From a virus: a DNA stretch of 64,000 bases. The stretch covers positions 106,426 through 170,425 of IMG/VR virus record IMGVR_UViG_3300032213_003144; one strand, written 5' to 3'. Shown here piece after piece: positions 5,447 to 54,600 of the stretch (positions within the stretch are counted from its first letter, which is position 1; each line of letters starts with the position of its first letter). The notes beneath the pieces were generated by a model. It was not told the origin of the DNA and did not search any database. It saw nothing but the letters and a program-made list of their open reading frames with translations. Both the position numbers and the translations under genes were made by a program.

Positions 5447-7525
5447 ATGGCTTGGAATTCATCCGAAAATAAGTCTGCTGGTCAAAAGCAGACTAAATCC
5501 GCCATTGGTTACGGCGCGCCCGTATCAAGTAACCCAAGTTACACGGATAAGCCATACAGGGACTCGTGGGATATTGAGCGTGCCTATAGAGAGGGCATGC
5601 AGAAAATTACCTGGGTTAACAGGTGTATAGATGCAATTGCTGGGAACCAAGCAAGACTTCCGATAATTCTAAGAAAAGACAATTCAAAAGACGGCGAAAT
5701 CGTAGTCGGCCGTGAGGCCAAGCGTTCTTCATTGCTTGAGCTCCTCAACGTTAAATCAAATATCGGCGAGAACTCTTTTATTTTCAGATACAGACTTTCT
5801 GCCCAGTTACTACTTGGTACGCGCGGAGCATTTATCGAAAAGATTCGCGGACGAGATGGTGGCGTTATTGGGCTGAACCTTCTTCCGCCACAGTCAACTG
5901 CACCAATTCCTGACGCTAGAACATTTGTTTCTGGGTACGAAGTGCAGATGCCTTACGGTAAAAAAGTAATAATGAAGCCAGAGGATGTTGTCTGGATTAG
6001 AAGGCCTCACCCGCTAGACCCATATCTGTCGCTAACTCCATTGGAAGCATCTGGAGTTGCCGTAGAAATAGAAAACCTAGCCAAGTTGTACAACAGAAAC
6101 TACCTGCTTAATGACGGAAGACCTGGTGGATTACTTGTTGTCAGAGGTGAGATTGACGAAGACGATAAAGAGGAATTACGCAATAGATTTAGGGGTAATT
6201 TAGGGAAAACTGGGCACACAACAGTTATCGCTGCAGACGAAGGTGTTGACTTTGTTGATACTTCGGCAAACCCAAGAGACGCTGCCTACATACAAATGCG
6301 TCAAATTACAAAAGAAGAAATTCTTGCTGCGTTTGGAGTTCCAGAATCAGTAATTGGAAATGCCTCAGGACGAACGTTTAGTAACTCATCTGAAGAGATT
6401 AGAGTTTTCTGGGTAGAGACAATGTTGCCTCACTTGGAGCCAATAGCAAGAGCTCTCGATGAACTTGACGAAAAGTATTACCTTGACTTTGACACAAGCG
6501 AAGTTCCAATTTTGCTGCTTTACAAACAGGAACGTGAAAGATACCTAAAAGACGAATTGGGCCAAGGTCTCATCTCTGTGAACGAATACAGAATTGCGAG
6601 CGGAAGAAAAGAAGTTGAAGCAGACCTCGCTGATTCATTACTCATGAATCCGAACCTGATTCCTATTGCTAATACAAAAAAGAAGATGGAAGAGAATGCC
6701 GCCCAGATACCCGGTGGCGCTCCTGGGGCACCAGGAATGCCTCCAATGCCAGGTATGCCACCAGTTCCAGGTATGCCACCAGTTGAGGGCGCAGTTCCAC
6801 CACTTGACCCAAATACGATGCAAGGTGCAATGGCTGAAGTTGCAGCCGGTGGTGCTGGTGACATGGCTCAGACTACGCTCCCACCAGAAGTGGCCGGAAT
6901 GGCACCAGCAACTGGAGCAGCCCCAATACCGCAAGGCATGGCTAGCGACCCACAAGATGGTTTTCAGTACAAAACAGCACTGACCGAGGATTTTGATAAA
7001 TCGGAAATGGCGATTGAGCGCTGGTCAGAAATTCTCTCCAGAGGAATCGAGAGGGTCGTTGAAAGACAGCAAAGGGTTGTTCTGGAAAAGGCTGGCAGCA
7101 GCAAGTCCAAGAAAGCTCTGATGTCTGGGACTCTTGACCTTGATTCAATTTTCGCCACAGATACATGGAACAAGCAAATGGAAGACGACTTGCGTCCTGT
7201 TATTTCCGCAATAATCAATGACTCTTTTGAATTTAGAAAAGAATCGTATTCTCAAAAAGGACTCAAGCCGAGAACAATTGCGCCTGCGACAATTAAGAAA
7301 AATATCGATTCACAGATATCAAGAATCATCTCAATCAACTCAGGTATTCGTTCTTCAATGGAAGAAATGATGATGAAATCATTCTCCCACGCTGGAGAAG
7401 AGCAAAGATTTTCCGTCTTTAGAGAAGAGCTTGTGGGCATGTACGCAAACATTCTTGCCAAGGACCAGTTGGAAATTTCAGAAACTGAAGCAAAAAATGC
7501 ATGGACGTTTGGACAGGTTGGATAG
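5447..7525 (+). CDS. Portal protein (HK97 family) with Pro-rich linker and C-terminal extension
   Basis: VNRCIDAIA, LTPLEA, NDGRPGGLL, EILAAFGVP, ISVNEYR motifs. Confidence 0.92.
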   Translation: MAWNSSENKSAGQKQTKSAIGYGAPVSSNPSYTDKPYRDSWDIERAYREGMQKITWVNRCIDAIAGNQARLPIILRKDNSKDGEIVVGREAKRSSLLELLNVKSNIGENSFIFRYRLSAQLLLGTRGAFIEKIRGRDGGVIGLNLLPPQSTAPIPDARTFVSGYEVQMPYGKKVIMKPEDVVWIRRPHPLDPYLSLTPLEASGVAVEIENLAKLYNRNYLLNDGRPGGLLVVRGEIDEDDKEELRNRFRGNLGKTGHTTVIAADEGVDFVDTSANPRDAAYIQMRQITKEEILAAFGVPESVIGNASGRTFSNSSEEIRVFWVETMLPHLEPIARALDELDEKYYLDFDTSEVPILLLYKQERERYLKDELGQGLISVNEYRIASGRKEVEADLADSLLMNPNLIPIANTKKKMEENAAQIPGGAPGAPGMPPMPGMPPVPGMPPVEGAVPPLDPNTMQGAMAEVAAGGAGDMAQTTLPPEVAGMAPATGAAPIPQGMASDPQDGFQYKTALTEDFDKSEMAIERWSEILSRGIERVVERQQRVVLEKAGSSKSKKALMSGTLDLDSIFATDTWNKQMEDDLRPVISAIINDSFEFRKESYSQKGLKPRTIAPATIKKNIDSQISRIISINSGIRSSMEEMMMKSFSHAGEEQRFSVFREELVGMYANILAKDQLEISETEAKNAWTFGQVG

Positions 7526-7633: not shown

Positions 7634-10600
7634 ATGTCAAATGAAGCATTCGAATACAAGTCATCGGCGCACGGCTCTCAGTCCATCAAAGGAACGGTCA
7701 GCCTAGACGAGGCCCAGGGGATAGTCGAATGTTTCGTAGCTGGAATTGGTAATAAAGACTCAGTCGGAGACGTATGTGCTTCAGGAGCCTTCACAAAGAG
7801 CCTTCTTCGCAGAAAGCCAAGAGTTGTATGGGGCCACAACTGGAATGACCCTATTGGTAAAGTATTGGAAATATACGAGGTTGGTCCACAGGACCCACGC
7901 CTCCCACTGAAAATGAAACTTGCCGGGATAGGCGGTTTGTTTGCAAAAGTTCAATTTAATCTAAGTTCAGAAAAAGGAAAAGAAGCATTTGCTAATGTCC
8001 ACTTTTTCGGAGAAGAACAAGAGTGGTCGATTGGATACAAAACACTAAGAGCTCAGTTTGACCAAAAGTCGCAAGCAAATATTCTTTACGAAGTTGAACT
8101 CTACGAAGTTAGCCCTGTTCTCCACGGAGCCAATCAGCTAACAGGAACAATATCCGTTAAGGCAGATGATTCCGCCTACGGAGGTTCAGTAGCAATGATG
8201 CCGCAAAGAGAAGAGAGCAACGGCTACGAAGAAATGGAGAAGGAACTCTCCAATCTATTCGGTGCAAAAGTTTCTGTTCATTCAATCGATGGCGACGAGG
8301 TCGTATTCACACGCCAAGAGATGAACGGTGCGAAGAAGTACAAGTGCGGCTTCATGAGAAATCAAGGCCGATACATGTTCGGAACTCCTGAAGTAATCAA
8401 TATTCCGCAGTCCCCAGTTCGTTCTCCTCAATCAGCACCAATGCCTGTGGTGAGCGGAAGACCTACTCCACCCAACGACCCACAACGCGTCATTAGACCA
8501 CAACAGATGCCTTCAATACCAGTTGCGATTAAGCCAAGCGACAATGGGCTAATGATGATTCCTCTTCCAGCTGTTCAGTATGACTCAAACGAAAAGCCGT
8601 CCCTGGACAAGGAGGAAGCAGACCTCCGTGATGCGCTGTTAAAGATAGTTTCACGCCACGGCAAATTTAACGAAGACTCTAACGGCGTATGGGCTGGATA
8701 CAGCCCTGCAGAAGAAAACGAAGTAGCACGTATCGGTGTTAAATGCTCAAACTGCGTCTTCTATCAAGGCGGCTCAAAGTGCAAAATTATTGACATGCCA
8801 GTTGAGCCAGAAGGGAAATGCAGATTTGCTGTTATTCCAAATGGGATTGTTTTGAGCAGTGGTTCCAAAGAACTCGAAGAGCATGTTTCCGAAGCAGAAA
8901 ATGCAATCATCGATGTACTAGAACTAAAATACCCAGGCGAGTTTGTTCTTGGAATTGTCAGAAATGCAGTTGGTAAGAAAAAGAAGAAAAGAAATAAATA
9001 CAAAAATCTTTCAGAGTTTGGTGATGACGACGACATGGGTGAAAAGTCGTACGTAATACCAGTCGAGCCAAGTTTTGCATTTAGAGTAAAAACAGCCCTT
9101 GACCCAATATTCGATTACCACAGAGCAGAGACTTTTGTTGACTCAGAAGGAATAGTGATTACCTCTGGGGTAACTGAAAATCTCATAGACGCAGTCGATA
9201 CGGCTCTTCACAACTTAAAAAAAAAATTCTCAGAACATGAAATAGAGGGAAAATCCCTCGGTTACAGAATAGGTCGGTCGCTTGGTTCGAGGCTCGTAGA
9301 TAGACCAAACCTCGGTGGTGGTAGGGATAGAAACAACCGTGGCGGCGGTCGTGGATTCGGGATGCCGGATGGCGACCTTGACCCCAGGACAAGAGTTGAC
9401 AAGAATAGGGATGGAACACTTTTTGATAATGTCCCAGGATGGGAACAGCCAGACCCAACCCCAGATGGACCTGGTTCGATAAATAACCGAAAACTCTCTT
9501 CCTCACAAAGAAGAGATGTTGCCAATATTCCGAGCGAGAGCGTAAACCCAGAATCGGTAGACGGTGACGTAATAAAGAGCCGCAAACCAAGGTATACGGC
9601 TGATGACCTTGGTGAAATCCTTGGAGAAAAGAAGAAGCCAACGAAGAAGGCAGTAGCAAAAAAATCTCCTGTTAAAAAAGAAAAAGTAAAGCGTGGAGAA
9701 CTTGATTTCGCTAAGGGTCCCAAAAAAGATAAGACACCATCACTATCCTCTGGTGAGGAAAGACCGCCACGTACTGCAGTTGCAATGCAGATGGACCCAA
9801 AGAATTCGAAGCTTGCAAGACAGATTGATTACGACCCACAGAATGGTGACCTCACTGTTTATTACAGAGATGGCAAAAAAGAAACATTCAATGATGTTCC
9901 TTATGACCGCGTGCGTAAGGCTGGATTTGACGACAAGCCAGATGCATTAATCAGTGCACTACAGAGAGAACAAAAGAAACCACAAGGCAGGATTAGTCTT
10001 GCATCTGGGGAGCAAGAAAAGAGACTTACCCGCCACTCTGGTGACCCAAAATTTGAATCACTTGTATCTCCAGAAGAACTTGAAAAGCGTAAGAAGTTTG
10101 AAGAAGTAATTAAAGACTGGAAAGACTCTGGTTACGGATGGGAAGACGTTCCTAGATACAAGCCAGACGTCTACAAGTCCCCGGATTATTTGCGTGGTAG
10201 GGAAATGGGCGTCAATCAGGCCAAAGTTATGTGGCGTGGAGATAGCACGGTAGAGAGACCAAAGGGATTCAACGAAAAGCAAAAAGCCTCACTTGATTAT
10301 CAAGAGTGGTATTCACGAATGGTGATGAGGGCTGGAGCTTTTCTAGAAGCATCACGTGGCGATGACAACGAATTCTACAACGGCATGGAAGATGCCATGC
10401 ATGAATTCATGTACAACAATAGACCAGATATAACAACCTACAACATCGATGGAGATAGAAAAGAACCGATGGCCGACTGGATGCGTCAGTACGGATTCGA
10501 CCCAGGCTCACCGACTCCATTAAGAAAGAAAAAAGAAGGAAAGAAGAGAAGTTCACTCTCCCTCTCTTCTGGCGCAGACGACGATACAAGACCAAACTTT

Positions 10601-13600
10601 GATGAAGAGAATTACGAAAGTGATACCAACGTAGATTTCTACGACACCCTTCTTGACATGATGGGCCCAGAAGAAGAAAGACCAAAAGTCACTTCTCGCA
10701 AAAAGCCAAAAGACATGAGTGATGAAGAGATTTATCGCAAGAGAACAACAACCGGAGCATCCCTGCAGGATGTTGCGGAAGAACTTGGTCTAACTAGAAT
10801 GGAAGTTAGGAAGCGCGAACAACGACACATGCGCAAAATGCGCAATGAAAAAGACGGCGTATCACTTTCTTCTGGAGCAAGCGATGACTGGGCCACTTCT
10901 AGGGGATACGAGCCAGACAGATTCGACCTTCGCGAAACGATGAATCAAATTGGTAGAGGAAACATAATGGCCATATCTGGTGGCCGCGTTGAGCGTAGAG
11001 GGAATGAAATGATTCTTCCTTCTACAAAAGACCAGCAAGTAGTCATCGGGTACAACTCGGTTCCAGACCTCTACTACGTCAGAGCTGAGCAGAAAATAAA
11101 TACAGGTAAGGACAAGGGAACCAACAGAATTCTTGCGCAATGGGACGAGGTTTATGCTGACGAAATTGGCGAACTCGCATATCAGGCAAGTCTCAAGCCA
11201 GCAAACCTCAATAGTGAGAACAAGGAGTACTGGAAGCTCGGCAAGGGAAATCAATTTGCAGACAGACTCGTTGATAGACGTAGCGGAAAGCTCGTAAGCA
11301 GAGAATCAAGAAATCTTCCATCAAAGCCAGCGCCAGAGGAAAGCCCAACTCTTTCTTCGGGTGGCAGAGGTCGTGACTACTACAACTACGACATAACAAC
11401 AACCGATGAAGGAAATGGATTACTCGACCAGGTGCATGATTACCTTGAAGAGAACCCCCTAATCAAAGATGACATAACAACCGATATTGCAGACATGCTC
11501 GGTGGAGATGGAATAGTTGAGGCTAATGGCTTTGACACAAAAAAGGCATTTGACCTGGTTACTGGTGGAGACGATGAGTTCCAGGATTATATGGACATCG
11601 TTGATGATGCCATGGAGGCCCTAAGTAATGGCTCCCTAGCAAAGCACAAGGCAACCGTTCGCGATACGAATGTAAGACTTGAGTCAGCAAAGCCAGGCAG
11701 TAATGAAGCAGGAAAACTCGAAGCAATCCGTGATAGGTCGTACGAGTGGATTGGCGACATAAACAAGTATTCACGCGTATCCACAATTAAAGATAAGAAG
11801 AATATTGAAGCCAGCGACGTGGCAACAAGAATGATTTCCAAAGAGCAAGATTCGCTCTGGAATGCTCGCGCGTCAATAACAGAAAAATATATTGAAGATA
11901 TTGCTTCAGCTGGAAAAGAATCAAAGCGCCGTGTATCAATCAGCGCAGTAGATACAGACTCTCGCGACATTCCAGAGTATGATTTAGCTCTCTCGTCTGG
12001 CAGTGTTTTTAAGGATAAACCAGCATCAAAAACGCTTTCCGGTAAGGCTGATGGCCTTTCTCTTGCCTCTGGAGAAAATAAAAAGATTTATGACGAAATA
12101 GGTAAGTCCATTCTTGAGGCATTAATTGAGATGGATAAGAACCCAACAGCAACCTATTGGGACGTACCGTGGAGAACACCAACCCTATACGCAAGAAACC
12201 CAACAAAGAATCGCCTTTATCAGGGAATGAACTCCCTACTGCTTGCCAATGCGCATAGGCAGAATAAGTACAGAGGAAATTTCTGGGCCGGGAAGACTCA
12301 GTGGGCAAAGTTCGGTGGAACAATAAAGAATGGCAAGGATGGAGTAAATATCCTTGTTCCAAGAGAGGGTTCAACCGGAAAATACTTTGTCGTACAGACC
12401 GTATATAACCTCGATGATATTGAAGGGCTCCCAGATGCATATGTAAAGAAGCTTCTAGATACAGGAAAGGAACTTCTTGACCCAGCGACAAAGATAAAGG
12501 ACGCCGAGTCGGTAATGGAGGAAATTAATCCTGTCATCAAGTTTGGCGGAGATGCTGCATACTTCTCAATTACGAATGACCATATTCAAATGCCACCATA
12601 CGAGATGTTTAAGTCTCCAGAGCAGTACTACTCAACCCTACTGCATGAGCTAACACACTGGACTGGCGGAAAGTCTCGTCTTGGAAGAAAGCAGGTAGGC
12701 CGCCAACAGGACAAGAAGGCTTATGCATACGAGGAATTAATTGCAGAAATGGGTTCTTCTTTCCTTCTTGCCGCACTTGGCATCGCACCAGAAGTAAGAC
12801 AAGACCACGTTGTTTATATCAAGAGTTGGATTTCCAACCTTCGCGAGGACCCGGGTGCATTCGTTAGAGCAATGACTGAGGCGCAGCAGGCGGCAGACTG
12901 GGTCATGGATAGGTCTCCAACAATGAGAAGACTTTCCGGTGTACCTGATAGCGAAAGAAAAGGAAAGCCAGATGCGGTTGATGCTGGGGAATCCGCAGTC
13001 TCAGAAGTAGTTGAAGAGACTAAGGGCTCTGTTACAGCACTCTCATCCGGCTCTCAAGTTGGATTAAGGAAAGCAAAAGAACTCAGATACTTTGGCGATG
13101 AAAAAGAATATGGCTCAGGCATAACTCAAAGAGACTCCAGTGGAAGGATTCTTGATGAATCTGGAGCACTTTCTCTTTCAAGTGGTGCAAAACCAATCGT
13201 CAGCCTTGACGGTAAAACAACGATTCCAAGACTAGACGACTCTGTCTCGTATAGAGAAAAGTATAAGTTCCTTCCTGATGAATTTGAACCAACAGAACAA
13301 CAAAAGGCTTCAATAGACACGCTTGTTCATATGCTTGAAAGTGAGACACCAGGGATTGTCGCTATTGGTGCTGGTGCTGGTTCAGGAAAGACAACCAACC
13401 TTAAACAGAATGCTCGTGCAGTTGCCGCACTTTACCCTGGAAAACAAATTTATTACACCGTATTCAATAGAGGAAATGCTAAAGACGGAAACAGGGTGAT
13501 GCCTAGAAATACAGGTGTTGCAACTGGGAACCAAATAGCATATTGGTCACTTGTTCTTGGAACTGGAGACGCCTTCTATGGTGCTGGAACAACCAGAAAG

Positions 13601-16600
13601 ATACAACTCGGAGTTGGTCCAAGAGACTCCAAGAAGTTGCGAGGAGCAAAACGTAACACCGTGAACGTTGCAACCACGTTTGAGGGAGAAACAAAGGAAT
13701 TCGCAGGAGAGATACCAGGGTACAGAGAGCTTGGGTACACAAGCTATGACTCTGCACCGAATATCGCAGAACGCCTTGCTAAAGATGGGATTGTTGACGA
13801 AGAAACTGATGATGGTTTTACTATTTCCCAAAATCTCAAAAAAGCTCTTGGCAGGTTTGCTGAAAGCTCGGATGAGAAGCTGTCAAAACAACATTTCCTA
13901 CTTCGTGATATAGAGAAAATTCAGGCATTACAAAATGGTGAACCAGTACCAACTGAAGATTCAATCGATGAAAAAATGGTTCAATATGCACAAATGCTTT
14001 GGGATGAAACAGTTGACCCAAAATCAAACGTGCTTATCCCGCAGGACTATCAAATCAAGATGTGGGCCCTAACAAATCCAGACCTTAGGTATGACAAAGG
14101 ACTGATTGGTCACAGGCCAAACGAAACAGTGTTTGATAAAGTTTTTCTTGGAACCGTTGAGGAAATGAACTCCGGAAAAATAAAAGTCGGAGACCTTGTA
14201 GAATTTAAAATTCCAGAAACTGGAGAAAAAGTTGCAGCAGTAATACGAAAACTAAACCCTCCATCAAAGAAAGAAACAAAAAAGGGTGAGCTATCTGGCA
14301 GTAGACAAGTAACCGGAACTGTATCGATTGTTTCTGTCACGAGTGATAAGCCTCTTGATGTGTTCATGTTCGACGAGGCCCAAGACGTAAACCCTGTGTT
14401 GGCAAAAGTACTCGCCGATAATGCAAAGAACATGCCGATAATAATGGTTGGCGACTCACGCCAAGCAATCTATGGGTTCAGAGGAGCCATGGATGCCCTG
14501 GAGAAAGCTAATGCAACATTCAGACTTCCTCTAACACGTTCATTTAGGTATGGAGCAATCCCTGCATATTTAGCCAATGTCGTGCTGATGCAAGGCAATA
14601 TAGACGATTTTAACTTTTATCAAAACATGGGAACACCCGAAAAAAACATATGGCACCATGTTGTAGGAGAGGCGCAAAATGTTGTTATAAACGCGCTCAA
14701 CATAAACGGACCAGATGGGAAAATACTTCCTAAAAAAGAACTTGAAAAGAAACTTAAATTCATAGAAGTTAAATACAAACTTGGCGGAAGAGCTGTCGAC
14801 TTTAAGGGCAAAAACGAAAAAGAAGTAAAAGACATCATTTCAAAACTTTACGACGAACATGTCCCACGCGCTGAAGGTCAGATAGTTGAGGACATGACTA
14901 GTGCTGATGCTGTTCTAACTTCTACCAACTCCGGAGTAATGGTCGAAGCCTTGAAGGTAATCCAGGACGGTATTAATGCACATCAAATCGCGTATCTCGA
15001 CCTAGATGGAATAGAAGATATAAAAAATCCAGAAGAGCTAGCTGGAAGACTAAGAACATTATCCGAGAAATACACTCTTGATGGTGTTGCTGTAGACCTT
15101 ATAGAAATATTGGAAAAAGATGGTAGAGATTCAATGCTCAATGCCGTCAATGAACTTAGAGAAGAATATGCTCCAGGTGGAGCTGACGGGAAAATACCAG
15201 CCATTGGCATACCTGCCGACACACATGAAAAGTTTCTTGATTTCTTCACTCAACTCGACTGGATTATTGGTGACCTTGATAAGAAGTTTGGAATCGAAGG
15301 AAGACCAAAACCATCTAAACTACTTAAAGACGTATGGAGATTTGATAAGAAAAAGGGCAGATACCCATCAAAAGATGAGATGCTGGCAAAAATTGACAAG
15401 ATGATTAAGGGTGGAGAATCAGAACTTCGCACGCTTTACAACCTTGCTTACCCCAAGTCCAAGGATGGAGGGGTAAGAGGTGATGCAAAAGGGGCAAGAT
15501 TCTTTAAAGACCTTTTACGTCCACAAGGCCAAAAATATACTGACATAAATGGAACTGAGGTTAAGTACCAAGGCCTTAGACCAATGCGTGAAGGAATCAA
15601 TCTTCCGAATATGGAATCTGGTCGAGACCACATAACTACCGAAGAGATGGACAGAGTCGGAAAGCTTAAGCCTGGAACAAAATCTGGAAGCAGCCAAAAA
15701 ATTTCCTGGATAATACCCAAGAAGGAAGAGAGCGTATCTGATGGTGAGGTATTCGTAAAACTTCACATCGGAGAAAACGGAAAGCCATCTGGAGCGTTGA
15801 TAATTGCAGGCGATGGAGCGCACGGAGGAAAGTACAAAGTCAGAAGATGGAATAAGGCCAAGAAAACCTGGAGCCCAATCGAAGAGGGGAAACCAGGGAA
15901 GATTGACTACCACGGTGATATATCAAAAGTTATAAAAAAGATGAAAGCTGAATACCCAGACGCCGTAATTGAATTTAGGCAGGGACTAATACAGCAAGTT
16001 GGTACAGCTCAGACATTCCCATCAGACATATCTGATGATTTTGTCCCACCAATGAAAGGTGATTTGCCAGATAGTTCTGTGCCAAGAGCTTCGCTTCCAG
16101 GGTTCTTCATACAAGGAAAAGACAGCGAAGAAACTGCGCGTCTTGCCAATGAACTCGGAAACAGGGTTAGACAACTTGCCACGGAAGGAAACACGGATAC
16201 CGACATTATGACGGTTCATGTTTCCAAGGGCAGGGAGTGGAAGAGGGTCAGACTCGCTGATGATTTCAAAAATCCTGAAGACATGGTCCCAGTAATACCA
16301 GAAGAAGAATTAGCAAAGTTAAGTCCAAAGGACAGACTTGCTGTCGAGAGACAGCTCCAATTGATGCGCAGAGAAGAGCACAACAAGGTATACATTGCAA
16401 TAACCAGAGCTCAAGAGCAAATAGATATTGGCGCAGTTCTTGCAAAACTTTATTTTGATGATTCACAAAACGCATCTATAAAAAGTGCAAAAGATAAAAT
16501 TGCAGAAAATCCAGATGGAATATATGACGAGCTTCAGGCTCCTGCTGGTTTCTATGTTCCGTATTCTGGTGATACAGAAGCACGCGATGCTGCCAGAAAA

Positions 16601-26500: not shown

Positions 26501-28619
26501 GGATGGGTGGGATGGTGTTGAGGTTACTGAAGTTGATTTGTCATCAGACATTCTGCCAACTGAATCACACCTAAAAGGTTCTTCTATAGACAAAGTCGTA
26601 TCTGGTCAGGAGCCATTTAGAGAGGGCTATTACCCGAACCTCGTAATTGACGTAGATGGGAAGATGTACATATCGGATGGTCATAATAGAGTCGCCATGA
26701 ATAGGGCTCTTGGAAATCAGACAATCCAAGCTCGAGTTATAGACCTTAGAAAGATTGAACAACCATGGGGCGAACAGAAGCCAGGTAAATCAAACTATGG
26801 TGGATACGACCTAGTTGAGCCAGACAATCCACTGCCAGAAAGCGGAAAGTACGCAGAAGATGTTGTTGACGCAGCAGACAAGCAACGAGAAAAACTAAAG
26901 CCTGTAGAGAAAGAAATAACCAAAACCCTAATCGACCTTTCCAACAAACATGGCGCTGTAATGATTGGTCTCGCTGCACGATTTAAATCAGTTAAATCTC
27001 TAGCGAGAAAGATAAATGACGAAAGAGGAAGCAGGACTGCCGAAGAGGCAGCTGCAGACATGTCTGATGTAATCAGGTACACGATGACATACACTCCAGA
27101 AAACTATGTGAGTGGAGCAAAATCTGTAATCGACGAATTGCAGTCAGCTGGATATAGGCTTACTGTTAAAAACTACTGGAAAACAGGCGACCCATATCAG
27201 GGGATAAATATTGCTGCAGTACATCCTGACGGAACCAGATTTGAGTTGCAATTTCATACCCCACAGTCTGCAGTGGAAAAAGAAGTAATTCACAAGGTCT
27301 ATGACGAATACAGGGTTGAAACTGACCCCAAAAAGCGTTGGAAGCTATACGACCGTATGACAAGAATGGCAGAACGAATTGATATTCCGGTTGAACCAGG
27401 TATTCAGGATATAGGTGAAACCAGATTCCAAGATTTCTCCCTTGCTTCCGGTGCTCAAATAGATAAGCCAGAAGCACCAGTACGGCAGTCAGGCGCAACC
27501 AAGAAAATAACCAACAGCGAAACAGTGGTAGACGAAAGCACTGGTCGCTCTGTTGGTAAAAATAGAGATAAAAAAGAAAGCACAAAGAAAGATGTTGCTG
27601 CTGAATGGTTCTCTTCGTTTAAGAGTTTTGAATCACCGGATTTTGGTAAGAATAAAGATGAATATGGAAGAATGCGAAAATACTACGAGAGCGTTGGTCT
27701 TACCAAGGACGTCAGAGACGACCTTATGCCGGTCTCTGGATATCTGGTTCACAAATCTGATATTCAGAAAAAGAAAAATGATGTTATAAAAAATAGAGTT
27801 GGCAACGTGGGCCCAGACGCAGTATTTGAGGTGCAAGATAACGACATAGTTGGTGACGGATTGACTTCCCTTGGTGATGTCGAGATAGTTCTGAAGCCAG
27901 AGGTATCAAAGAGGACCTCATATGGCAGAGGTTCTGGTATAAAGAATGGGCATAGACCGGTAAGGATGGACTCTACGTCTAGGGATGATATAGCGCATGC
28001 TGTTTCGTACTCTCAAAATTCCAACACCAACGCTGATTCCTCTGATGCACTGGTTAACCTCCTTGCCTCATCTATCGACGGGGATTTTTCAAGAGTATCC
28101 AGGAGTAGTAAAACAAAAGGAAACGAGAACTTCGAAGCACACATACTTGGCGGTTTTGATGCCGATGAGGTTGATTCAATTAACTACCCATATTCGAAAC
28201 TCTCAAAATTAAGCGAAAAAGAAGATATTTCAGACGTGGTAAACGATAAATCAATCGCTGCCTCACTTAGGGATATGGGATTCACTCAGGCAGAAATAGA
28301 TTACTTCTACTCGGTTGGTGGACCTGGTCAGATAAATACCGAAAGTATGGCGAAACTGCGCGAATACAGAATGTCGAAGAAAGTCAAAAATGAGTACTCA
28401 AGGCTTGGTTTCTCAAAGGTCAAAATTGCCCACCCACAAGGATTGAACATCGAGAACCCAAGAACTCATTCAAAAGCTTCTCGTGGGATAGAGGATATTG
28501 AGAGTCTTCTCAAGAAAGAAATAGCTACAGAGATAAAGAAGACCGTAGAGGAACTACTAAAGGAAATGCGCAAGGGTCAGAAGCCAAGAGTTGTCTCAAA
28601 GGTTGGTTCCGGAATATGA
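20520..28619 (+). CDS. Giant putative polyprotein: HExxH zincin, coiled coil, degenerate ART-like region, two ParB/Srx-like domains, RelA/SpoT-type synthetase, DUF3626-like C-terminus
   Basis: HEIAH; IVDGHHR and ISDGHNR; RFKSVKSLARK/DVIRYT/YQGIN/ELQFHT; VLKPEVSKRTS...FEAHILGG. Confidence 0.85.
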   Translation: MTGDRNKTRVIVSQRLISPLSCCNNFNSKALEFRSSVVQSLSSSRLDADAAVKAAMGKKPTYEDTDNRKREFTGTTKPGVTEIAPGIRVEGNQAWEEGRGLVLYPSWKSKRSMDLDANFGWIKTEKDIDFQAAQKKRKEKPQLQFTKYQVSKKTGDVIPDSEVNIDMAYPHLGLSRAQRRKKNNYISNPKMEFKAGLPGRSLESRVPGGNLLARTAGRFGIMRDAANKFRCPPGTPAANQFTDHLGSNCFGVSAERAAKFIAEKISDLMKVNDDSISLSSGAKSTWRERLGLARPDVELPGRSPSFDLETGDRIPTTPAEIVDVPGRLRWFKNATVNAQRNLARSESVIQKLESRMVTGDFTPEQRAVNADRHALLQILSNRGIWDINIEGRLSESEVNELIASRLESIPEWSSLTDEEKLALFTADKKRFYETERAMLDSLLEQFVIRPEHMRTIGTVQFRQAALPGNSEADTLWDAGTKGAEIKSVIRINLAQIMENQESLIPNMSASERLVISAVGAKTDAEALASVADFLINTEYTARGMAGLIDGPRSFARHIMLHEIAHTIQGEAFLATIKQQIDAVGYVQVPVVKDGKFTGALKEVSDFKKLTGMDLSALVISSQDDINLTALEETMSKIENVAFLAGSYPGQYKNPEKMEVYALESTAELWGLREEGLIFGDDIDDALGFMDDAIGAKASEARAATDLEMLEKLEESYFSPYERGEDVLPIRKHLRSAIELDKKAIAIKREEREIAAHREEIKDLDQDGLAEKLADTIFEIEIRKDILSNLEKERIDTEKAGLPLESIDEEIERIKSPLRLLEKKKQIEIAKNRDFNSDGKSKSDKEITDMALEINRAKTPATEEMVKRRETEARIDSLRSEAESLDEKSLMKTIADYDLKASSLKPDSDEYITAVADREIFIQQHIANQRAAGDTRPERAIRNELKAEITKEITASRKAVDEAKRGKLKPQKMKSKEQIAQNAKKERAKLRRNITKQQFEAVKEIDDFNTAEITQMLEPEKQVVIGRAINKRNNRLKRLGLESDPSSVDEGSLDEQVENILIPAMEAIDASDITTPFEMEVFLDSSKLSRVKPGKEIDIDSFGQGKVLSRSMKPGKPEKGSKKKRVVVQVKEGDRGLFPLAKKGDDQQFVIPPGKLRVVGRDKDGSLIVEISSQKDTVDVLDDLSKSIGDGPGDAIWRQGAKKKIQLVADRHAVKRKDEVSGTKSDDAIKVTETSESVVSEVSTAGAEFGETSSEKFLTLSSSAELTTESLRTKRHEKYGEVIGKPGERSESLKSSIAALMDEDRNLAASVEEILDNESNEQIIERIETAAQKLHSGFDRRVRVRMNEDDIRELAEQRKIRAIRNTDSSVSSGMSRRTERLSLSSGEKKMSRKDTEEAFAKRVKERITTKLSRIPPPKLEEGLSPSEEEKAIRKHVDKWFDNLTDAELAELGAKRFYLPDGTPLLSKTTGRVIYQTENNEVAASLLSLGQTVEMPEHKRGESLMVKQAASQIKKALKELAKENPGQIVTADLCKFYVEGKNVFCSENLKVDRLEMPQVGGRAVNNESMALRLWGSGLATAETVEAHPAFENGKLTVGLKARLATLENGTMEAEELEKDIEVLQLIGTGYEGAGVEQIAITPEQQRVMDKYGVTITARELKRLGEKWNRTATARIEGKEPDPSDELTDIERKNFFDNIDYSMIEPDGVDAFTNFLKMLGVGIQEDRVTKPDELMASQRELDGPKVDNISENILQAVKKLTEIKDPAEKKKEIERLRREHGLFKKILISKEGYIVDGHHRIIGKIVTNGVLSEDIPGLDQDDLDILGLPVRQIDMGIIELLTVSRIYQDFLGIKPASLSATDDDSFKTAGVVGKKSKKIITDAEDMHGIDKIPKITQQEFDDEHEKLKTQLEEKTDEIYARGQFIQVDSVGLNNTKESKLYKEVQLKRQKEATARVDAGKARSPGLKENRDRSVREYGMKWKPEYSEVKSVEESKAWDGWDGVEVTEVDLSSDILPTESHLKGSSIDKVVSGQEPFREGYYPNLVIDVDGKMYISDGHNRVAMNRALGNQTIQARVIDLRKIEQPWGEQKPGKSNYGGYDLVEPDNPLPESGKYAEDVVDAADKQREKLKPVEKEITKTLIDLSNKHGAVMIGLAARFKSVKSLARKINDERGSRTAEEAAADMSDVIRYTMTYTPENYVSGAKSVIDELQSAGYRLTVKNYWKTGDPYQGINIAAVHPDGTRFELQFHTPQSAVEKEVIHKVYDEYRVETDPKKRWKLYDRMTRMAERIDIPVEPGIQDIGETRFQDFSLASGAQIDKPEAPVRQSGATKKITNSETVVDESTGRSVGKNRDKKESTKKDVAAEWFSSFKSFESPDFGKNKDEYGRMRKYYESVGLTKDVRDDLMPVSGYLVHKSDIQKKKNDVIKNRVGNVGPDAVFEVQDNDIVGDGLTSLGDVEIVLKPEVSKRTSYGRGSGIKNGHRPVRMDSTSRDDIAHAVSYSQNSNTNADSSDALVNLLASSIDGDFSRVSRSSKTKGNENFEAHILGGFDADEVDSINYPYSKLSKLSEKEDISDVVNDKSIAASLRDMGFTQAEIDYFYSVGGPGQINTESMAKLREYRMSKKVKNEYSRLGFSKVKIAHPQGLNIENPRTHSKASRGIEDIESLLKKEIATEIKKTVEELLKEMRKGQKPRVVSKVGSGI

Positions 28620-31747: not shown

Positions 31748-32500
31748 ATGAAAACATATGCGGTAATAAAAGATTCAGTAAGAAATACACCACTCGTTAT
31801 AGCTGTTCGGGAAGAGGGGATGGTTTCTGTTCACGGTATCAATGAGTACGGTAAGTCGGTCACTCAGCACATTCTCAAGAGTGGCTCAATTGACAGCAAG
31901 TCAATGCCTGATGGGGTTGAAATAACTGAATTTAAGTCAATTACTGGCAATACAGCTGCTCTTTTTGAGAGCTACATCAGCAAGTCGATAATGAACGTAC
32001 CAATTACTGAGTCAATTATCAATACCGAATTTGACAAAAAGACACGTGGGAAATCGTTCAAGGAAAGAAGCATTCTCTCCGAGGGTAAGGAGTCATCCCA
32101 GCATTCAGGCAAGCAGATACGCAAGTTCTCAAATGTAACAGCAAAAATTAATATGGTTGCATTTAAGGCCGGCTCATTTAAGAGTAGATTAAAAAAGAGT
32201 TCTGTCATAACATCGCTGTCTGCTTACGGAGTTGGGTTTGATTCGTCTGCGAACAAAATCGTGCAGAAAGATTCAAAGAGAATCACCAATCACACCATAG
32301 ACAAAATCAATGATTATGTCGGTGAAGGACAAATGAGAAGGTTTGCCAGAAAGACAATGGTGAGCAATTTAGACGGAACCAGACTCACCAGACGTTCAAG
32401 TGCATTGTCTAAAAAAATTGAAGAAATTTCAGAAAAGTCAGTAAGACCTGAACATAGATATTCTGAATCAATCAAGTCAAGACTCAAGAGACTCTCATGA
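31748..32500 (+). CDS. Hypothetical protein
   Basis: 250-aa ORF in the operon. Confidence 0.7.
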   Translation: MKTYAVIKDSVRNTPLVIAVREEGMVSVHGINEYGKSVTQHILKSGSIDSKSMPDGVEITEFKSITGNTAALFESYISKSIMNVPITESIINTEFDKKTRGKSFKERSILSEGKESSQHSGKQIRKFSNVTAKINMVAFKAGSFKSRLKKSSVITSLSAYGVGFDSSANKIVQKDSKRITNHTIDKINDYVGEGQMRRFARKTMVSNLDGTRLTRRSSALSKKIEEISEKSVRPEHRYSESIKSRLKRLS

Positions 32501-33730: not shown

Positions 33731-35098
33731 ATGTCGCAAGACAAAGCAAGAACAGAAGAGTTGCAATCAGCTCTTCGCACGAAAATGGCAGAGAATAAGG
33801 CCATTGCGGATTCATTCAAAGTTGAAGAAGGAACTGTCATAGTTTCGACAGACCAGAAATCAGCATTCGACAAGAACATGAGAGACATCAAGGAAATTAA
33901 GTCACTCTTGTCCGACCTTGAAACAATGGGCTCAGTAGAGTCATGGTCAAATCAGCCACAGGGCGAAACAGTTTCATCTGCTTACGCCGCTGCAGCTGCC
34001 GACATGAATCACCTGTCGTCACATGAAATCAAGTCAATTGGTCAGATGTTCCTTGACTCACCAGAGTTCAAGTCTTTGGCCAATGGTCGTAACGGTGCAA
34101 ACATGTCATCACCATGGCAAGTTGCAACTTCGTTGACAACACACAACTTCGGCATTCAGCAGAAGGACATTTACACAGCATTGCCAACAACATCAGTAAC
34201 AAACAGCCGCCTCGGTGAGTTTGGAACAGTTCAACGCGATGCCATGGTTCTTCCTCCAATGCGTACGAAGCGTGTCCGTGACTTGTTCCCAGTTCGTAGA
34301 ACAAACGCAGCAGTTATCGAGTACTTCCGTCAGCTTGGTTTTACAACCCTTCAAGCTGGTCATGGAACAAACTCGGCATCATCTGTTGCTGAAAGAACAA
34401 CAGCTGGAACAGCATTTGGTTTGAAGCCACAATCTTCATTCGCATTCGTTGGCGAGCAAGCTCCAATTCGCACATTGGCACACTGGGAAGCTGCACACCG
34501 CAACGTCCTCGCCGATGAGCCACAATTGCGCTCAATCATCGACAACGAACTGATGTACGGTCTCCGTCTTCTTGAGGATAATCAAATCCTCAACGGCAAC
34601 GGAACTGGCGAGAACCTTCTCGGTATTCTCCAGACACCAAACATCCAGAGCTACAGCTGGTCAAGCGGCGCAACCTTGCCGGTACCAGACACCAAGGCTG
34701 ATGCACTTCGCCGTGCAGCAACTCTATCGTTCTTGGCATACTACGAGCCATCTGGCATCGTTTTGCACCCGAACGACTGGGAAGATATCGAATTGACGAA
34801 GGACGTAAACGGCCAGTACTTGGTCGCTATGTCAGTCGCAATGGGCGGCGAGCCAAAGGTTTGGAGAATGCCAGTAATTGACACTCCAGCCATCACTGAA
34901 GGCCAAGCACTTGTTGGTGCCTTCGGAACCGGTGCTCAGTTGTACGACAGAGAAGAAGCAAGCATTCGCATCAGCGAACAGCACTCAGACTTCTTTGTCC
35001 GCAATGCGATTGTGGTTCTTGCAGAACAGAGACTTGCTCTCGCTGTCAAGCGCCCAGAAGCATTCGTCAAGGTGACATTCAACAACGCACCAGCGTGA
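33731..35098 (+). CDS. Major capsid protein (HK97 fold)
   Basis: N-terminal helical delta-like domain, VAE..LKPQS, EDNQILNGNGTG, VLHPNDW, FVRNAIVVLAEQRLALAVKRPEAFVK; strong AGGAG RBS. Confidence 0.95.
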   Translation: MSQDKARTEELQSALRTKMAENKAIADSFKVEEGTVIVSTDQKSAFDKNMRDIKEIKSLLSDLETMGSVESWSNQPQGETVSSAYAAAAADMNHLSSHEIKSIGQMFLDSPEFKSLANGRNGANMSSPWQVATSLTTHNFGIQQKDIYTALPTTSVTNSRLGEFGTVQRDAMVLPPMRTKRVRDLFPVRRTNAAVIEYFRQLGFTTLQAGHGTNSASSVAERTTAGTAFGLKPQSSFAFVGEQAPIRTLAHWEAAHRNVLADEPQLRSIIDNELMYGLRLLEDNQILNGNGTGENLLGILQTPNIQSYSWSSGATLPVPDTKADALRRAATLSFLAYYEPSGIVLHPNDWEDIELTKDVNGQYLVAMSVAMGGEPKVWRMPVIDTPAITEGQALVGAFGTGAQLYDREEASIRISEQHSDFFVRNAIVVLAEQRLALAVKRPEAFVKVTFNNAPA

Positions 35099-35174: not shown

Positions 35175-35206
35175 ATACGGACATTTATGTGCGAGAATTG
35201 GTAATC

Positions 35207-44012: not shown

Positions 44013-44031
44013 CTACTTATTATACAGCTTG

Positions 44032-44664: not shown

Positions 44665-44746
44665 CGTGAGATATTAAGGGAAAATCTCCACCCCCAGGGG
44701 AAGCCCCATCCCCTACGACCCAAATCCATCGACTAGAGTCTTCTTT

Positions 44747-45835: not shown

Positions 45836-45844
45836 GTTACAGAA

Positions 45845-48682: not shown

Positions 48683-51600
48683 ATGTCTTCGCAAAATAAT
48701 GAGTTTGAGATTCCCTTTAGCCAGTCACGCCGTGGCAAAAAAGAGGAAATTAACGTTAAGGCAATAGGCCGGCGAATTGGCTCATCGGCAGCAAGCAGAC
48801 TCGTTGACCGACCGAATATAGGTGGTAGAAGAAGGCGCGGAACTCGTGGACTTGGCATCCCAGATGGAGACCTGAATCCCCGCACTAGAGTTGATGTCGA
48901 CGGAGATGGAACAATCTTCGATGGGTGGCCTGGCTGGGAGCAACCAGACCCAACCCCATCATCGATGCCTAATGCTCCAAAATTATCTCTATCTAGTGGA
49001 GAAAAAGATAAAAAACCATCTTTCCCACGCAAACCTACATATGGCCCATTCATTGGAAGTGCTGAAGACAGATTTGGCAAAGCAAAAACATGGGAAGAGT
49101 TTAAAGAAATTTACGACGACACCGAAATAAACTTCTTTGACTACGAAACAACTGGTCTTGTATTTGACGAATTCAGAGAGCCGTCGGCCAATGGTCAGCC
49201 AGTTCAGTTTGGCGTTGTGAGAATGAAGGGCGATAAGGAAATAGCTCGCTTGAATCTGTTTATGAACCCAAAAGAGCCGCTTGGCGAATGGTCGGCAAGA
49301 GAATTAAAAGATAGAGACGGAAACCAGCTAACAGACGAATGGCTATCCAGACAGATGTCCATGGCCGAAGCTCACAGGGCACTCGTTGAATTCGCTGGAG
49401 AAGATGCAATATTTGGTGTGCAGAATGCTGCGTTTGACAAAGACGTTCTAGAACAGACGCTTAGCGATGCCGGAATTGAATGGCGTCCCGGTGGATACCT
49501 AGATACAAAAGACATAGCAGACATGACTCTTCCTAAATGGTCTGAAGAAAATCAGGATGGGCCGTTCGTCATTGACTCTGAAGGAAACAAAAAACCATCA
49601 AATGGCCTTGCAGCAATAACCAAATACCTAGAGGTTGAGCTAGGGGAAAAACACCACACTGCAGATGCTGATGCACAGGCTACCGGCCTAGTGATGTCGG
49701 CGATAATAAATGGTGCCATTGAGAGAGACTGGCCGACAAATCTTCTTGATTCAGAAAAAAGAAAAACAAAACTGCAGAAAGATAATGAAAAATTTGATGC
49801 AGAAATAAAAAAATTTAGAGCAGCAAAAGAAGAATTTATTAAAGCTGCAAAGCAAAACGAACAGCCAAGCTTGTCGTCTGGTTCAAAAGAGCGCCCAATA
49901 ATAAAACTAGAAAACGACAAAAAGCGCCCAGTGATATCGTTCCAGAAAGATGAACGAGAATTGCTAAAAAAACATCGTTCAACAAAATACAAATATGGCG
50001 ACAAGAGTGCACTTGGTGGAGAAATTAAGTCTACTAAAACCAACTGGCTAAAGGGTTTGTCAAGTGAGCAAATTTCAGAACTCATAGTTCCCAGTTCGCA
50101 AGAAGAGCACTACAGAATGTGGGTTGACGATATAGCCCCAGGCGCATATGAGACACCGTCAATCAATGAGGCATTCAGGAAATATTATGACGAGATGATG
50201 GCAGGAAATCCATGGGATGAGGTTGACTATTCTCCGGACAACGTCCAGGCTTCACGGGATGCAGTAAAAGCACTGCTTGACTCATCACCAGCCGTTAAAT
50301 GGGCCTTTGAAAACCATGGGGCTCCATCCATTGGTGTGATGTCAGCAAAAGGAATTGAAACCTACGAAGCAATACCATCTGTAAGTCAAAAATTGACCGC
50401 GCTGCAGAATGAAAGATTTTTAGCTAAAAAACCATTTGTCAGGGCAAGACTTTCTCCTGGAACCAATTTGCTGATATTTAACAAGCGTGCCCTCATTGAT
50501 AGAGAGGGCTCGATTCCCGGGGAAGAGACTCCGCTCCTATGGTCAGACGCGCATATGCCACTAATAACCGATGCGCATATAGATAAATCAATCACTGGAA
50601 CGATTGTTCATGAATGGGGACACTGGCTTGTTTTTAGAGCAGTAAAAGACACAGAGCAGATAAAAAGGAATAGAACCAACTTCTTCGGCTCGGGGGACCT
50701 TAACGACGATAATTACATCAAAGCCCTCGCCCTATCTGAGTACTATTCAAAAACAGAAAAAAACAATGGACTTATGGATTTATGGAATAAAAAAGTTCCC
50801 ATAGAAGACTCCAGAGAGGTTCCGCGTGTTCTGACTTCATATGGTCACGTAAACGAGGCAGAAACATTCGCCGAAGGTGTAGTTGCATACTTTCATCCAA
50901 ATCCAGAAGTAAGAAAAAATGCAATAAATGAAAAGTTGCGCAACGATATTGAGACATTCCTGGGAGATGGGGACGGAAAGAAACCGTGGGACGATAATGA
51001 ATCCATAGAGCTTGCTATATCCTCTGGGCGGACATCTAAGCAGCGTTTGGAGAAGAGAGAAGCCAATTCAACCTCATCGGAACAGGCATTTTCGTCAATG
51101 CCAGAGGATGACAGGGAATTGGCCCGACTTGACTACTTCTTGTCACTCTCTTCTGGCGCAATAATTCCCGAATCCGGCTCGCGCAAACTAGAAATAATAA
51201 ACGATTTTGATGATAGAAAGAACGACAATTTTGCGACTCCGATACGCGTTGTGAGCTTTAAGGACAGTAACGGGAAAGATGTTGAGTACACGATATTTGC
51301 CACTGGGAAATTTGGCGACAGCGTTTACGTTTTTGAAAAGACAAAACTAGATAAATACGTATCAGAAAAAGAAGAAATGATTTCTCTCGCCAATGGGGTT
51401 CCATTTGAGGAGGTTGGCATATCCGTCATAAGTACAATGACAGACGAAAGAGAAATACGAGATAAAAAAAATGGCCTAGTTGGCGTAATGTCTGTCATGC
51501 CTCCGTCGGGTGACGGAGAAACATCCGTAGTACACGAAATTGCAATCGACGACAAACATAAAAGAAGAGGACTCGCCTCTGCTCTGTTTAAATACCACAG

Positions 51601-54600
51601 AGACTCATGGCCGGACCAAGACCTGCATCACAGCTCGGCACTTTCTGATGATGGGAGAGCGTTTGCTGCGGCTACCCCGTTTGACGGAACGTCCAATCCT
51701 CCAGTCGGAAATCTTCAAAACGATTTAACCAATTTCGTAAGAGGTTTGATGGAAGTGCTTCCTGACGATGAAAACGATAACGACATATCACTCTCCTCTG
51801 GGGCGAAGTATTCAGAAATTGTGAAGAGGCAGCCAAATCCTTCACGTGAGCAAATTGATTCTTCTAGAAACTTTAAGGATTTCGTTCAACTTGACGAACT
51901 AAGAAAAGAAGACGTATGGGCGACCACCGGCGTTGATGATTTCGGTGATGACATAACGGAAATGGTGGACTCAGAAGATAGGGCCAACATAAAGAAAGAT
52001 ATCAAGCAGTCAATTGAAACGTTGTTCTCTTACGAGATTGAGCTTGACGACAGTATTGTTGTAACGTCCAATTCTGGAGAAAAAATCAATCTCGGAAACA
52101 GGATAAAAATTACAGCTGTTGTTGAAGACGTTCAGGTCTCTGCTCTAGAAGAAAAAGATATCTCCGAACAGATTAACGAGATAGGGCACATGCTTATCGG
52201 AGAAGATAAGAAGCCGCTCACAAGGGTGGATGTAAAATTCAAGATATCCCCAGCCGATTCCGCGGCTACGGAAAAACTGCTCGCCTTAGGTGTGCCGGAG
52301 AGTCTTATCGATATCGACAATCCAAAAACAGACATTGAGCTTGGGCGCGCTCATAGAGCGATATTTACGGACGGCAGCAAGACGATAGTGTCCCATGAGT
52401 CAATATTCATTAGTAATAGCGCTCGCGGTAACGGTTTGGCTAGTGTATTTAATGCCAGAAATGAGTCGCTATATAGAGAGATTGATGCCGATTCAATAAT
52501 AACCCAAGGCATGTCCTCATCGTCTTCAGACCAAATCGGCGCTACCCATTGGGCCAGAAATGGTTTTACTATCCTCGGCGAGCCATCGAAGCAGAGATTC
52601 ATTGGCGTAATCGATGATGCCATAACCAACAAACCAGGGTCATTCTCTGAAGAGGAGAGGAAGAGAATATCCTCGCTATACAAAAAAGATAAAAAGACTG
52701 GGAAATTCACCTCTTCTGCAACCCCAGAAGAACTAATTGACTTCAGCGAAGCAGACGAAGTGTTTGGCCTCTCCAACAACGGTGATGGAGAAGCAATATT
52801 TTTCACTCGCGAAGTCTCAAAGCCAAGCGGAATCAATAAGGCAATGAACAGAATGAGGAGAAGGGTTGGTTCGGAAAGAACTGAATCGATTTCTCCGTCG
52901 CTTTCTTCTGGGGCTTTTGATTACCGCGGGCTCCATGGGGCTCCAGGTCGTGGCTCTGGAGCACCACTGCACGACCTGATATCCCCAGACTATTCGGTAT
53001 ACCCGGAAGACGTATATTCATCAAACGCTATTAAATACTACGGGGTTGGAGACGATAACCTTGATGCATCAGCATTCAACTTGATTAGAAGCTTTAAGGG
53101 TAAGCCAAACGCAGAGGTCACTATATATAGGGCTGTGCCTACTTCTCCTGAGACGAGAATTTCTCGTTTGGAAAAAGAAAAAGCTCACATAATGAAGTAT
53201 GGAAAAGTACCAAAGAGCGCCGTAACCAATCTAGGACCAAGCGAGTACTACGAAAAAATTAGCAATGAAATAGATGAGTTGAAAAACAACCCAGAAGTCA
53301 GGTCTTCCGTTTCTTCTGGGGACTGGGTTACCCCATTTAGACAATATGCAGTAATGCATGGAGATGGTGCTCTTCGTGGAGATTATGAAATAGTAAAGAA
53401 GCGTGTAAAAGCAAAGAATGTCTATACGGACGGAAATTCATGGCTTGAGTGGGGCTATGACGATAGTAAGGGTTCGTTGTCTTTGTCGTCTGGGGAGCAA
53501 CCTAAAATAAACCTATCAGATGATGAAAAAAGAGAGATAATACGTCTCGCATCTCAAAGGACGGATAGTTTCTCGCGTAGTGTTGTCGCTCAATACCACA
53601 GAAACAACGGAAGACTATCGAACAAGCAGTGGGCTTCGTTAAATCGAATGACATCCAGGGGCGCTCTTGGTCTTGGTTCTGGAATGGTGAGCGATGGGGA
53701 AATACTAACTAGGGTTGCCAAGTCTTTTGAGAGGGCATCACTTCCAGATGAGCCATCAACGCCAATAGACCAGAGACTTATTTCAAAAATGGTTTCTGGA
53801 CTAAAGAAAAAAGATGGAACACCGGTGTCAATTAACGACTTCCTTGGTTTCTTGTCAAAAATAGCTGACATAAATGACGACAGACTGGGTAACCACCCAG
53901 GTTTCAATGATTTGGAAGAAACAATCTTACCGATTGAATCACTTGCAGATATTTTTAAAGAACTTGGTCACTCAAGAATCGATGTACCCGGCTCAAGGAC
54001 AAAGAAGATACTCGGACCAGTGGTCAGAGAAATGGTCGACCTTGTTGGTGACGATGAATTTTTGGAGGATGCAAGACAATACGCGCTCCCACCACTGGAG
54101 GTGTGGGCCCGAGCAGCAGCAAAGTCGATTTTACAAATGCAAGAATTTACAAAAGACGTTGGTGAGCCGCGGCGTGAGTTTATGAAGCGCGAATTTAGTA
54201 TTGAGTCACTTGATGGGGTTAATTCCTTTGTGCTTAGAGATATTGGTGGAGAAATCATCATGTCTGGACCAGTTTCTGATATGCAGCAACGGGATAGGCA
54301 CGAATTCCAATATTCAAACTTGAATTCAATAATGTTCAGCTACCACCAGCAAACTCCAGGCATTCCTTTTATGACGATGGTTAAGCGCCATTTGTATCCA
54401 GACGACCCATTGGCTGAGGTTCTTGCTGACAGAAGGGTTATGTCGGCAAATAATGATGCCGCAATGGGTGGAAGAAATATGGCGGAGAGTCTAGAAAACG
54501 CCATCTTGACCCCTCTGGATGTTTACAAGTTCTCTGACTCTCCATCAGGAAGAAGAGTAAGGGAAATGTTTGAAAGGGCATATACCGACGTTGCTCACTA

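Follow-up and report, generated by a model that had tools for sequence, protein, structure and literature searches.

We analyzed a 64,000-nucleotide stretch of viral DNA (positions 106,426 to 170,425 of IMG/VR record IMGVR_UViG_3300032213_003144; hereafter the window), in which the gene immediately after the portal gene joins a prohead protease to a long chain of further domains, among them an ArdC anti-restriction module and a helicase. The best overall explanation, to which we assign a probability of roughly 0.55, is a protease-cargo fusion with a slippery junction that would be co-assembled into the head, cut at L-[SA]-S-G sites and ejected with the DNA.

The Protease-Led Polyprotein

A preliminary description of this DNA had proposed one continuous open reading frame (ORF) at 7634-18706 after the portal gene, opening with an HK97-type maturation protease. 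The frame is indeed free of stops, and the identity and position of the protease were confirmed by Pfam, PHROGs and gene order. The features of this region (window positions, aa = amino acids) are:

5447..7525, plus strand: portal protein (Phage_portal, E 6e-50), immediately upstream of the polyprotein gene
7634..18706, plus strand: protease-led polyprotein ORF, 3,690 aa from ATG, no internal stop; alternative TTG start at 7622
7634..9226, plus strand: conserved N-terminal head module, aa 1-531 (protease and a further domain), from conservation in relatives
7721..8152, plus strand: Peptidase_S78 domain, aa 30-173 (Pfam, 42.9 bits vs. cut-off 21; 14/14 relatives match)
8744..8821, plus strand: invariant four-Cys cluster (C371, C374, C383, C396), from the alignment of relatives

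A hidden Markov model search, suggested in the same description, matched all four families named there (Peptidase_S78, ArdcN, MPTase-PolyVal, and UvrD), and the functions assigned to the polyprotein by PHROGs were head maturation protease, anti-restriction protein, and DNA helicase. The four domains are present together in 14 of 14 aligned relatives, among which HExxH, GSGKT and DEAQD are invariant. Complete ORFs of relatives range from 2,890 to 4,905 aa; the architecture is kept in more than 400 IMG/VR contigs, and the protein collection holds more than 1,000 related proteins. The cargo, first put at ~3,100 aa, was corrected to ~3,500 aa past the protease domain, or 3,159 aa past the slippery junction described below.

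Across 27 relatives the mean column identity of aa 1-531 is 65%, with many invariant columns. His68 (VVWGHNW) and Ser132 (EWSIGY) are likewise invariant in 27 relatives; no solved homologue aligned for catalytic assignment, and neither the protease region nor its profile gave a usable hit in a sequence search of PDB. With the 501-aa maturation protease of Gordonia phage ChisanaKitsune, which is free-standing, the S78 domain shares 41% identity. It was found once in the genome, which CheckV rates as complete, and searches across the genome for S77, ClpP, and S49 proteases found none. Since S78 is the sole domain of this kind, the fused domain must be the working prohead protease, and by these searches it is the only recognisable one that the phage has.

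A Candidate Slippage Site at the Junction

The protease module meets the cargo at a run of ten adenines, and a conserved leader follows directly.

9217..9226, plus strand: A10 homopolymer, TTA AAA AAA AAA (L528, K529-K531), candidate slippage site; sole A10 in 170 kb
9238..9245, plus strand: stops in both shifted frames (TGA 9238-9240, TAG 9243-9245)
9233..9469, plus strand: ~80-aa cargo leader, aa 534-612, from homology to the third giant protein (see below)

The run is kept in 38 distinct sequence contexts from lineages ~60% identical in protein, with flanks that vary freely. The counts for the Lys codons of the run in these contexts are AAA 111, AAG 2, and AAT 1, against AAA 158 and AAG 166 in the whole ORF, and the last base of the codon before the run is A in every case, even though TTA is seldom used for Leu here. 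Codon usage and flank comparison thus indicate conservation of the run at the nucleotide level, beyond what the protein requires. Both shifted frames stop after 1-6 codons in 37/37 contexts despite differing downstream protein (chance at a random ORF position, 0.10). It is known that 9-A or 9-T runs slip efficiently in bacterial transcription and that A_AAA_AAG is the dnaX shift site (PMC5009743). By its sequence the A10 run is a candidate site of dnaX type, that is, a homopolymer of at least 9 A/T at a domain junction with nucleotide conservation. A literature search found no paper connecting such a slippery site with a prohead protease. Given a conserved slippery A10 at the junction, the phage probably makes a cargo-free protease too, and we infer that both the ~536-aa protease module and the long fusion would be produced from one gene.

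Of the 420 related stretches in IMG/VR, 80 were fetched for comparison of the junction; 72 are in one frame, two are split, and six lack the region. The preliminary description had raised the concern that separate genes were joined by error. An assembly artefact of this kind was rejected, since 72 of the 74 independent assemblies with the run show an unbroken frame. A miscounted homopolymer has something in its favor, as a one-base error in A10 would toggle between fused and split forms and split contigs do exist. In three samples (L063, L208, L209) we found stable A9G split genotypes with a 548-aa protease ORF, in which the zero frame reads as the dnaX heptamer A_AAA_AAG and the cargo lies in the -1 frame. 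An A13 split genotype, also stable, is carried on a 180-kb contig (L207), and further split forms are present on long contigs. However, in the split genotypes the shifted frame still encodes the conserved leader and offers no start codon before it; together with the count of in-frame assemblies this makes a sequencing origin of the long frame barely credible.

The Shared Leader and the Other Giant Proteins

The leader directly after the A-run shares 55% identity (E 9e-35) with aa 16-94 of a free-standing 2,583-aa protein, the third of three giant proteins encoded in the window. The other large products are:

18823..20499, plus strand: acidic scaffold-like protein, 558 aa, with a protease-type C-terminal tail (homology to the ChisanaKitsune protease tail)
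20520..28619, plus strand: second giant protein, 2,699 aa, with three L[SA]SG sites and a conserved HExxH region
48683..56434, plus strand: third giant protein, 2,583 aa, with the leader at aa 16-94, eight LSSG, a DnaQ-like exonuclease, and a ParB-C-like stretch

The pairing recurs in three other genomes (G003-G005), where one copy of the leader stands after K-K-K in the protease gene and another lies at the start of a second large gene. LSSG follows the leader in the free-standing giant, at aa 103. The leader was not found in the second giant, and in the wider S78-led family it was found in close relatives only. We read it as a possible loading or docking signal. Because a giant with the same leader is not fused to the protease, the fusion cannot be the sole loading route. 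Part of the leader (aa ~592-612, window 9410-9470) reads D-x-N-x-D-G-T-L-F-D and resembles a calcium-binding loop; in other lineages this stretch is replaced by D-x-D-x-D-G-W-x-D-E-G. A weak copy of the leader part EVKAGG...D.DGDG..FDG was also seen in a 428-aa DUF6321 protein downstream of the capsid gene (window 35189-36475).

Over aa 437-528 the scaffold-like protein shares 47% identity (E 3e-21) with the C-terminal tail of the ChisanaKitsune protease. Since this protease-type tail is now on a separate gene, an ancestral protease-scaffold gene appears to have been divided, and the 558-aa acidic protein is probably the scaffold split from it. In the second giant, an HExxH and a downstream LE..AEL[WY]ALRE block (aa ~555-700) are conserved in all clades examined; this region is a candidate gluzincin and was matched by no profile library. 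Two further HExxH motifs occur in the third giant at aa 643 and 2055.

The Boundary Motif and the Cargo Domains

The tetrapeptide L-[SA]-S-G occurs 13 times in the polyprotein ORF against 0.22 expected. Genome-wide there are 28 copies, with 24 in the three giants (13, 3, and 8) and four elsewhere. Motif copies and cargo domains, all on the plus strand, are placed as follows:

8852..8863: LSSG, aa 407; 1/14 relatives, not conserved, probably chance
9743..9754: LSSG, aa 704; 6/14 relatives
9806..9907: weak KTSC-like stretch, sub-threshold (19.7 bits vs. cut-off 25)
9998..10009: LASG, aa 789; specific to the lineage under study
10562..10573: LSSG, aa 977; 11/14 relatives
10748..10846: sigma70 region-4 type helix-turn-helix (HTH), Sigma70_r4 at 27.4 bits vs. 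cut-off 24.1 with the segment scanned alone
10865..10876: LSSG, aa 1078; 4/14 relatives
11351..11362: LSSG, aa 1240; 11/14 relatives
11990..12001: LSSG, aa 1453; 13/14 relatives, S1455 and G1456 invariant
12062..12073: LASG, aa 1477; immediately upstream of ArdC
12071..13048: complete ArdC module, aa 1480-1805 (ArdC-N and HELTH zincin), from Pfam, PHROGs, and PDB
13040..13051: LSSG, aa 1803; 9/14 relatives, immediately downstream of ArdC
13175..13186: LSSG, aa 1848; 12/14 relatives, ahead of the helicase
13184..16825: helicase module of superfamily 1 (SF1)/UvrD type, aa 1851-3064 (1,214 aa), GSGKT and DEAQD invariant
16817..16828: LSSG, aa 3062; past the helicase
16982..16993: LASG, aa 3117; 11/14 relatives
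17042..17053: LSSG, aa 3137; 6/14 relatives
17051..18703: conserved C-terminal domain, aa 3140-3690 (~550 aa), from conservation in relatives

The cargo domains named in the preliminary description were largely recovered. The ArdC-N and HELTH zincin pair was matched by Pfam (ArdcN, aa 1483-1575, 46.9 bits; MPTase-PolyVal, aa 1623-1747, 132.8 bits) and, at nearly full length, by ArdC in PDB (6SNA/6I89, E 5e-41, residues 26-294 of 305), with HELTH aligned to HEATH. The SF1 UvrD-like helicase also stands: UvrD-helicase scored 39.9 bits against 23, AAA_19 matched as well, and the helicase motifs extend over aa ~1900-2930, with UvrD_C borderline (25.2 bits vs. cut-off 25.6). The HTH is recognisable as Sigma70_r4, and the KTSC domain was seen as a sub-threshold match. 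For the C-terminal domain no family was obtained from Pfam or PHROGs and a look-up in the ESM Atlas gave no lead; Pfam and PHROGs also returned nothing on the remaining unassigned segments of the polyprotein.

Six sites (aa 977, 1240, 1453, 1803, 1848, and 3117) are conserved in position in 9-13 of 14 relatives, and the conserved sites sit within gap-rich linkers of 10-30% identity. The residue preceding Leu is specific to the lineage and common to all giants of a genome: S, A, or T here, R at 21/21 sites in genome G002, and mostly K in another clade. Cutting at sites 1477 and 1803 would excise a full-length ArdC. A cleavage code would be expected to look like this, and the sites are probable cleavage sites. 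As an alternative, the chain could stay whole when it is packaged or used, as the N4 virion RNA polymerase does, with L-S-S-G as a linker or modification site. In the Iyer et al. survey, N4 virion RNA polymerase, pSa ArdC, and TraC1 are described as travelling uncut (PMC5512222). Nevertheless, a tetrapeptide that stays invariant within fast-evolving linkers, that bounds whole stand-alone proteins, and whose lineage-specific flank is common to unrelated giants is poorly explained in this way, and we consider an uncut chain improbable.

Some further copies and codes were noted. Outside the window, a 1,648-aa Gly-zipper protein, possibly a tape measure (G000 92597-97543, L210), carries one SLASG. 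In sister clades, D-G-F-A-S-R occurs 13 times in the linkers of a 4,905-aa S78-led ORF (L219, G007 43900-59000), and G-L-[RK]-S ten times in a 1,806-aa S78-led ORF with neither ArdC nor helicase (L211).

Proposed Packaging and Cleavage of the Cargo

The idea that the fusion loads enzymes into the head, put forward in the preliminary description, was supported in part: the gene lies in the head module, between portal and capsid, and carries the sole prohead protease, although, as noted for the unfused giant, fusion is not the only route. ArdC acts in the recipient cell (PMC7213743), and packaging has been predicted for phage polyvalent proteins (PMC5512222). Loading of enzymes into the head via the protease is the best reading of the sequence. 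One could instead view the polyproteins as an expression device that supplies intracellular proteins in fixed ratio, with cytoplasmic cutting and no packaging at any stage. In its favor, the gene of the third giant neighbors that of the primase-helicase, and the protein carries a DnaQ-like exonuclease. We judge this highly improbable for a gene between portal and capsid whose product is led by the sole prohead protease, given also that ArdC acts upon entry into the recipient and that virion carriage is predicted for the polyvalent family.

We infer slippage, packaging, and cleavage in the following order. In this late gene the sole prohead protease heads a conserved 531-aa assembly module, to which ~3,160 aa of cargo are attached via the slippery A10. 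RNA polymerase or the ribosome would slip on this run, giving a ~536-aa cargo-free protease module next to the 3,690-aa fusion, much as with Gag/Gag-Pol. The N-terminal module would co-assemble into the procapsid and bring the cargo inside, and the ~80-aa leader, also found on the free-standing giant, may serve as a shared packaging or docking signal. The chain would then be cut at the L-[SA]-S-G sites into ArdC, helicase, HTH module, and others as separate proteins. Assemblin cleaves (V/L/I)-x-A-S between A and S, and T4 gp21 cleaves after (L/I)-x-E. By analogy with these enzymes S78 is favored as the cutter, probably after L-S-S. The pieces would be ejected with the DNA, where ArdC might protect it from restriction and the helicase process it.

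Two lines of evidence speak for S78 as the reader of the motif. In 61 S78-led proteins of 1,000-2,000 aa that lack HExxH, linkers with G-[LFM]-x-S (GLRS, GFAS, GMxS) were observed 217 times against 62 expected, with the first copy where the protease module ends. In the capsid protein, an L-[ST]-S is conserved near the place where a delta domain would be expected to end:

33731..35098, plus strand: major capsid protein, with L-S-S at aa 95-97

At this capsid position other clades have F-T-S, L-A-G or L-G-S, so that the test of code-tracking is ambiguous. S78 is favored over the zincin, narrowly.

Several observations weigh against the proposed pathway. LSSG was not found in capsid and scaffold-like proteins, the capsid L-S-S being without G, and the capsid position does not track the polyprotein code in G007, a relative with the GFAS code that has SVPTRQ there. 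The putative tape-measure-like Gly-zipper protein of relatives, which lies outside the head, has 2-3 motif copies of the type used by the respective lineage, and the HExxH zincin of the second giant is kept in every lineage. The third giant is encoded in the replication module, where its gene directly follows those for the primase-helicase and an HTH protein. The most distant (K-type) clade has no A-run, owing to a 17-aa deletion. An AlphaFold2 model of aa 1-567 (27 relatives) was poor, with a predicted local distance difference test score of 47, and was not used for fold search. In addition, if each protease copy brought along a 413-kDa passenger, the head would become crowded unless most copies were of the short form.

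Some of these points would fit a related scheme, with the same architecture and packaging, in which a zinc metalloprotease reads L-S-S-G, be it the HELTH domain of ArdC type or the second giant's conserved HExxH domain. Cutting would take place before Leu (hydrophobic P1'), in the cytoplasm or after ejection into the new host, and S78 would process only capsid and scaffold; the missing LSSG of those proteins and the motif on the tape-measure-like protein speak for it. HExxH occurs in all three giants, and that of the second is conserved in all clades, including one whose polyprotein lacks ArdC. The S78 domain is 89% identical across lineages that differ in the flanking residue. Iyer et al. predict that MPTase domains autoprocess polyvalent proteins (PMC5512222), and the ArdC protease is dispensable for anti-restriction (PMC7213743). 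On the other hand, repeated phi-x-S linkers accompany S78-led proteins that themselves have no HExxH, in genome G006 the zincin of the second giant is retained yet the protease ORF is short and a repeated code is absent, and cutting in the cytoplasm would part the cargo from its carrier ahead of loading. We regard a zincin cutter as somewhat less likely than S78, but as a serious alternative.

Extended to a large clade of tailed phages of freshwater Actinobacteria, the S78 scheme would resemble that of retroviruses and have the A-run set the ratio of free protease to fusion, the leader recruit giants in trans, the head protease cut a lineage-specific phi-x-S code, and the enzymes be injected. 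We offer this broader version tentatively, at somewhat short of even odds.

Genome Context and Host

The window is the final 64 kb of a 170,425-bp virus record with a CheckV rating of complete (100%). The large terminase gene precedes the portal gene on the opposite strand, and the gene for the HK97-fold capsid protein follows the polyprotein gene at a distance of 15 kb. Two WhiB-family genes in the genome (window 45503-45835 and G000 33260-33451) point to an actinobacterial host, and hence to an actinophage. The closest cultured capsid proteins are from Gordonia and Brevibacterium myophages (48% identity); blastn of the sequence against cultured phages gave 0 matches. A DUF3721-containing protein is encoded within the head module (window 32497-33582), and a class II (B12-dependent) ribonucleotide reductase at window 41664-43589 on the minus strand.

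The family is abundant and probably infects dominant lake Actinobacteria, so that an injected anti-restriction kit would be relevant to phage-host dynamics there. If confirmed, the arrangement would be a third route of loading capsid cargo beside T4-type targeting peptides and MuF fusions, would account for how phages dose very large passengers, and could give a natural modular kit (leader, cleavage tag, protease carrier) for foreign proteins in HK97-fold capsids.

Comparison with Known Systems

Herpesvirus UL26/UL26.5 and P2 gpO are protease-scaffold fusions. Together with ChisanaKitsune gp30 they have the same N-terminal capsid protease and a C-terminal passenger entering the procapsid, and they come in short and long forms with one common end, as is predicted here. 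They differ from the present gene in the passenger, which here is ~3,100 aa of enzymes, and in the acidic scaffold tail, which is now a separate downstream gene.

T4 internal proteins and Alt have an N-terminal capsid-targeting sequence that is removed by gp21 at L/I-x-E, and head proteins of phiKZ/SPN3US are cut at S/A/G-x-E. The predicted likeness lies in head-internal ejected proteins, a short processing consensus, and a leader removed after loading. Theirs are separate small genes, whereas here up to 13 sites are found in one protease-linked chain.

To our knowledge, polyprotein processing and recoding of Gag-Pol type are textbook matters for RNA viruses and retroviruses, not for tailed phages. 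Gag/Gag-Pol and dnaX tau/gamma (A_AAA_AAG or 9-T slippage; PMC5009743) share with the A10 junction a slippery homopolymer at a domain junction and a nearby stop in the shifted frame, and as in those systems the site would set the ratio of short to long product. Here, however, the long form is mostly in frame and slippage would truncate it; the reverse holds in the A9 and A13 genotypes.

The ArdC of R388 (PDB 6I89/6SNA; PMC7213743) aligns over nearly its whole length with aa 1480-1805, with HExxH intact, but the module described here is phage-borne and lies within a polyprotein, with LSSG at either end. The N4 virion RNA polymerase (~3,500 aa) is head-packaged and ejected and contains an MPTase (PMC5512222). 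It is packaged uncut, with no protease fusion and no boundary motif.

By its domain content the polyprotein is one of the polyvalent proteins described by Iyer et al. (2017; PMC5512222), but protease-first. Polyvalent proteins are the same kind of giant multidomain chain near portal and terminase genes, with ArdC-N and MPTase hubs and a helicase, and are likewise predicted to travel with the DNA. The boundary motif, the slippery junction, and the shared leader were not found in the passages of that survey covered here. The survey places assemblin-like peptidases "always at the C termini", a descriptive and non-defining statement, whereas in the polyprotein studied here the protease is N-terminal.

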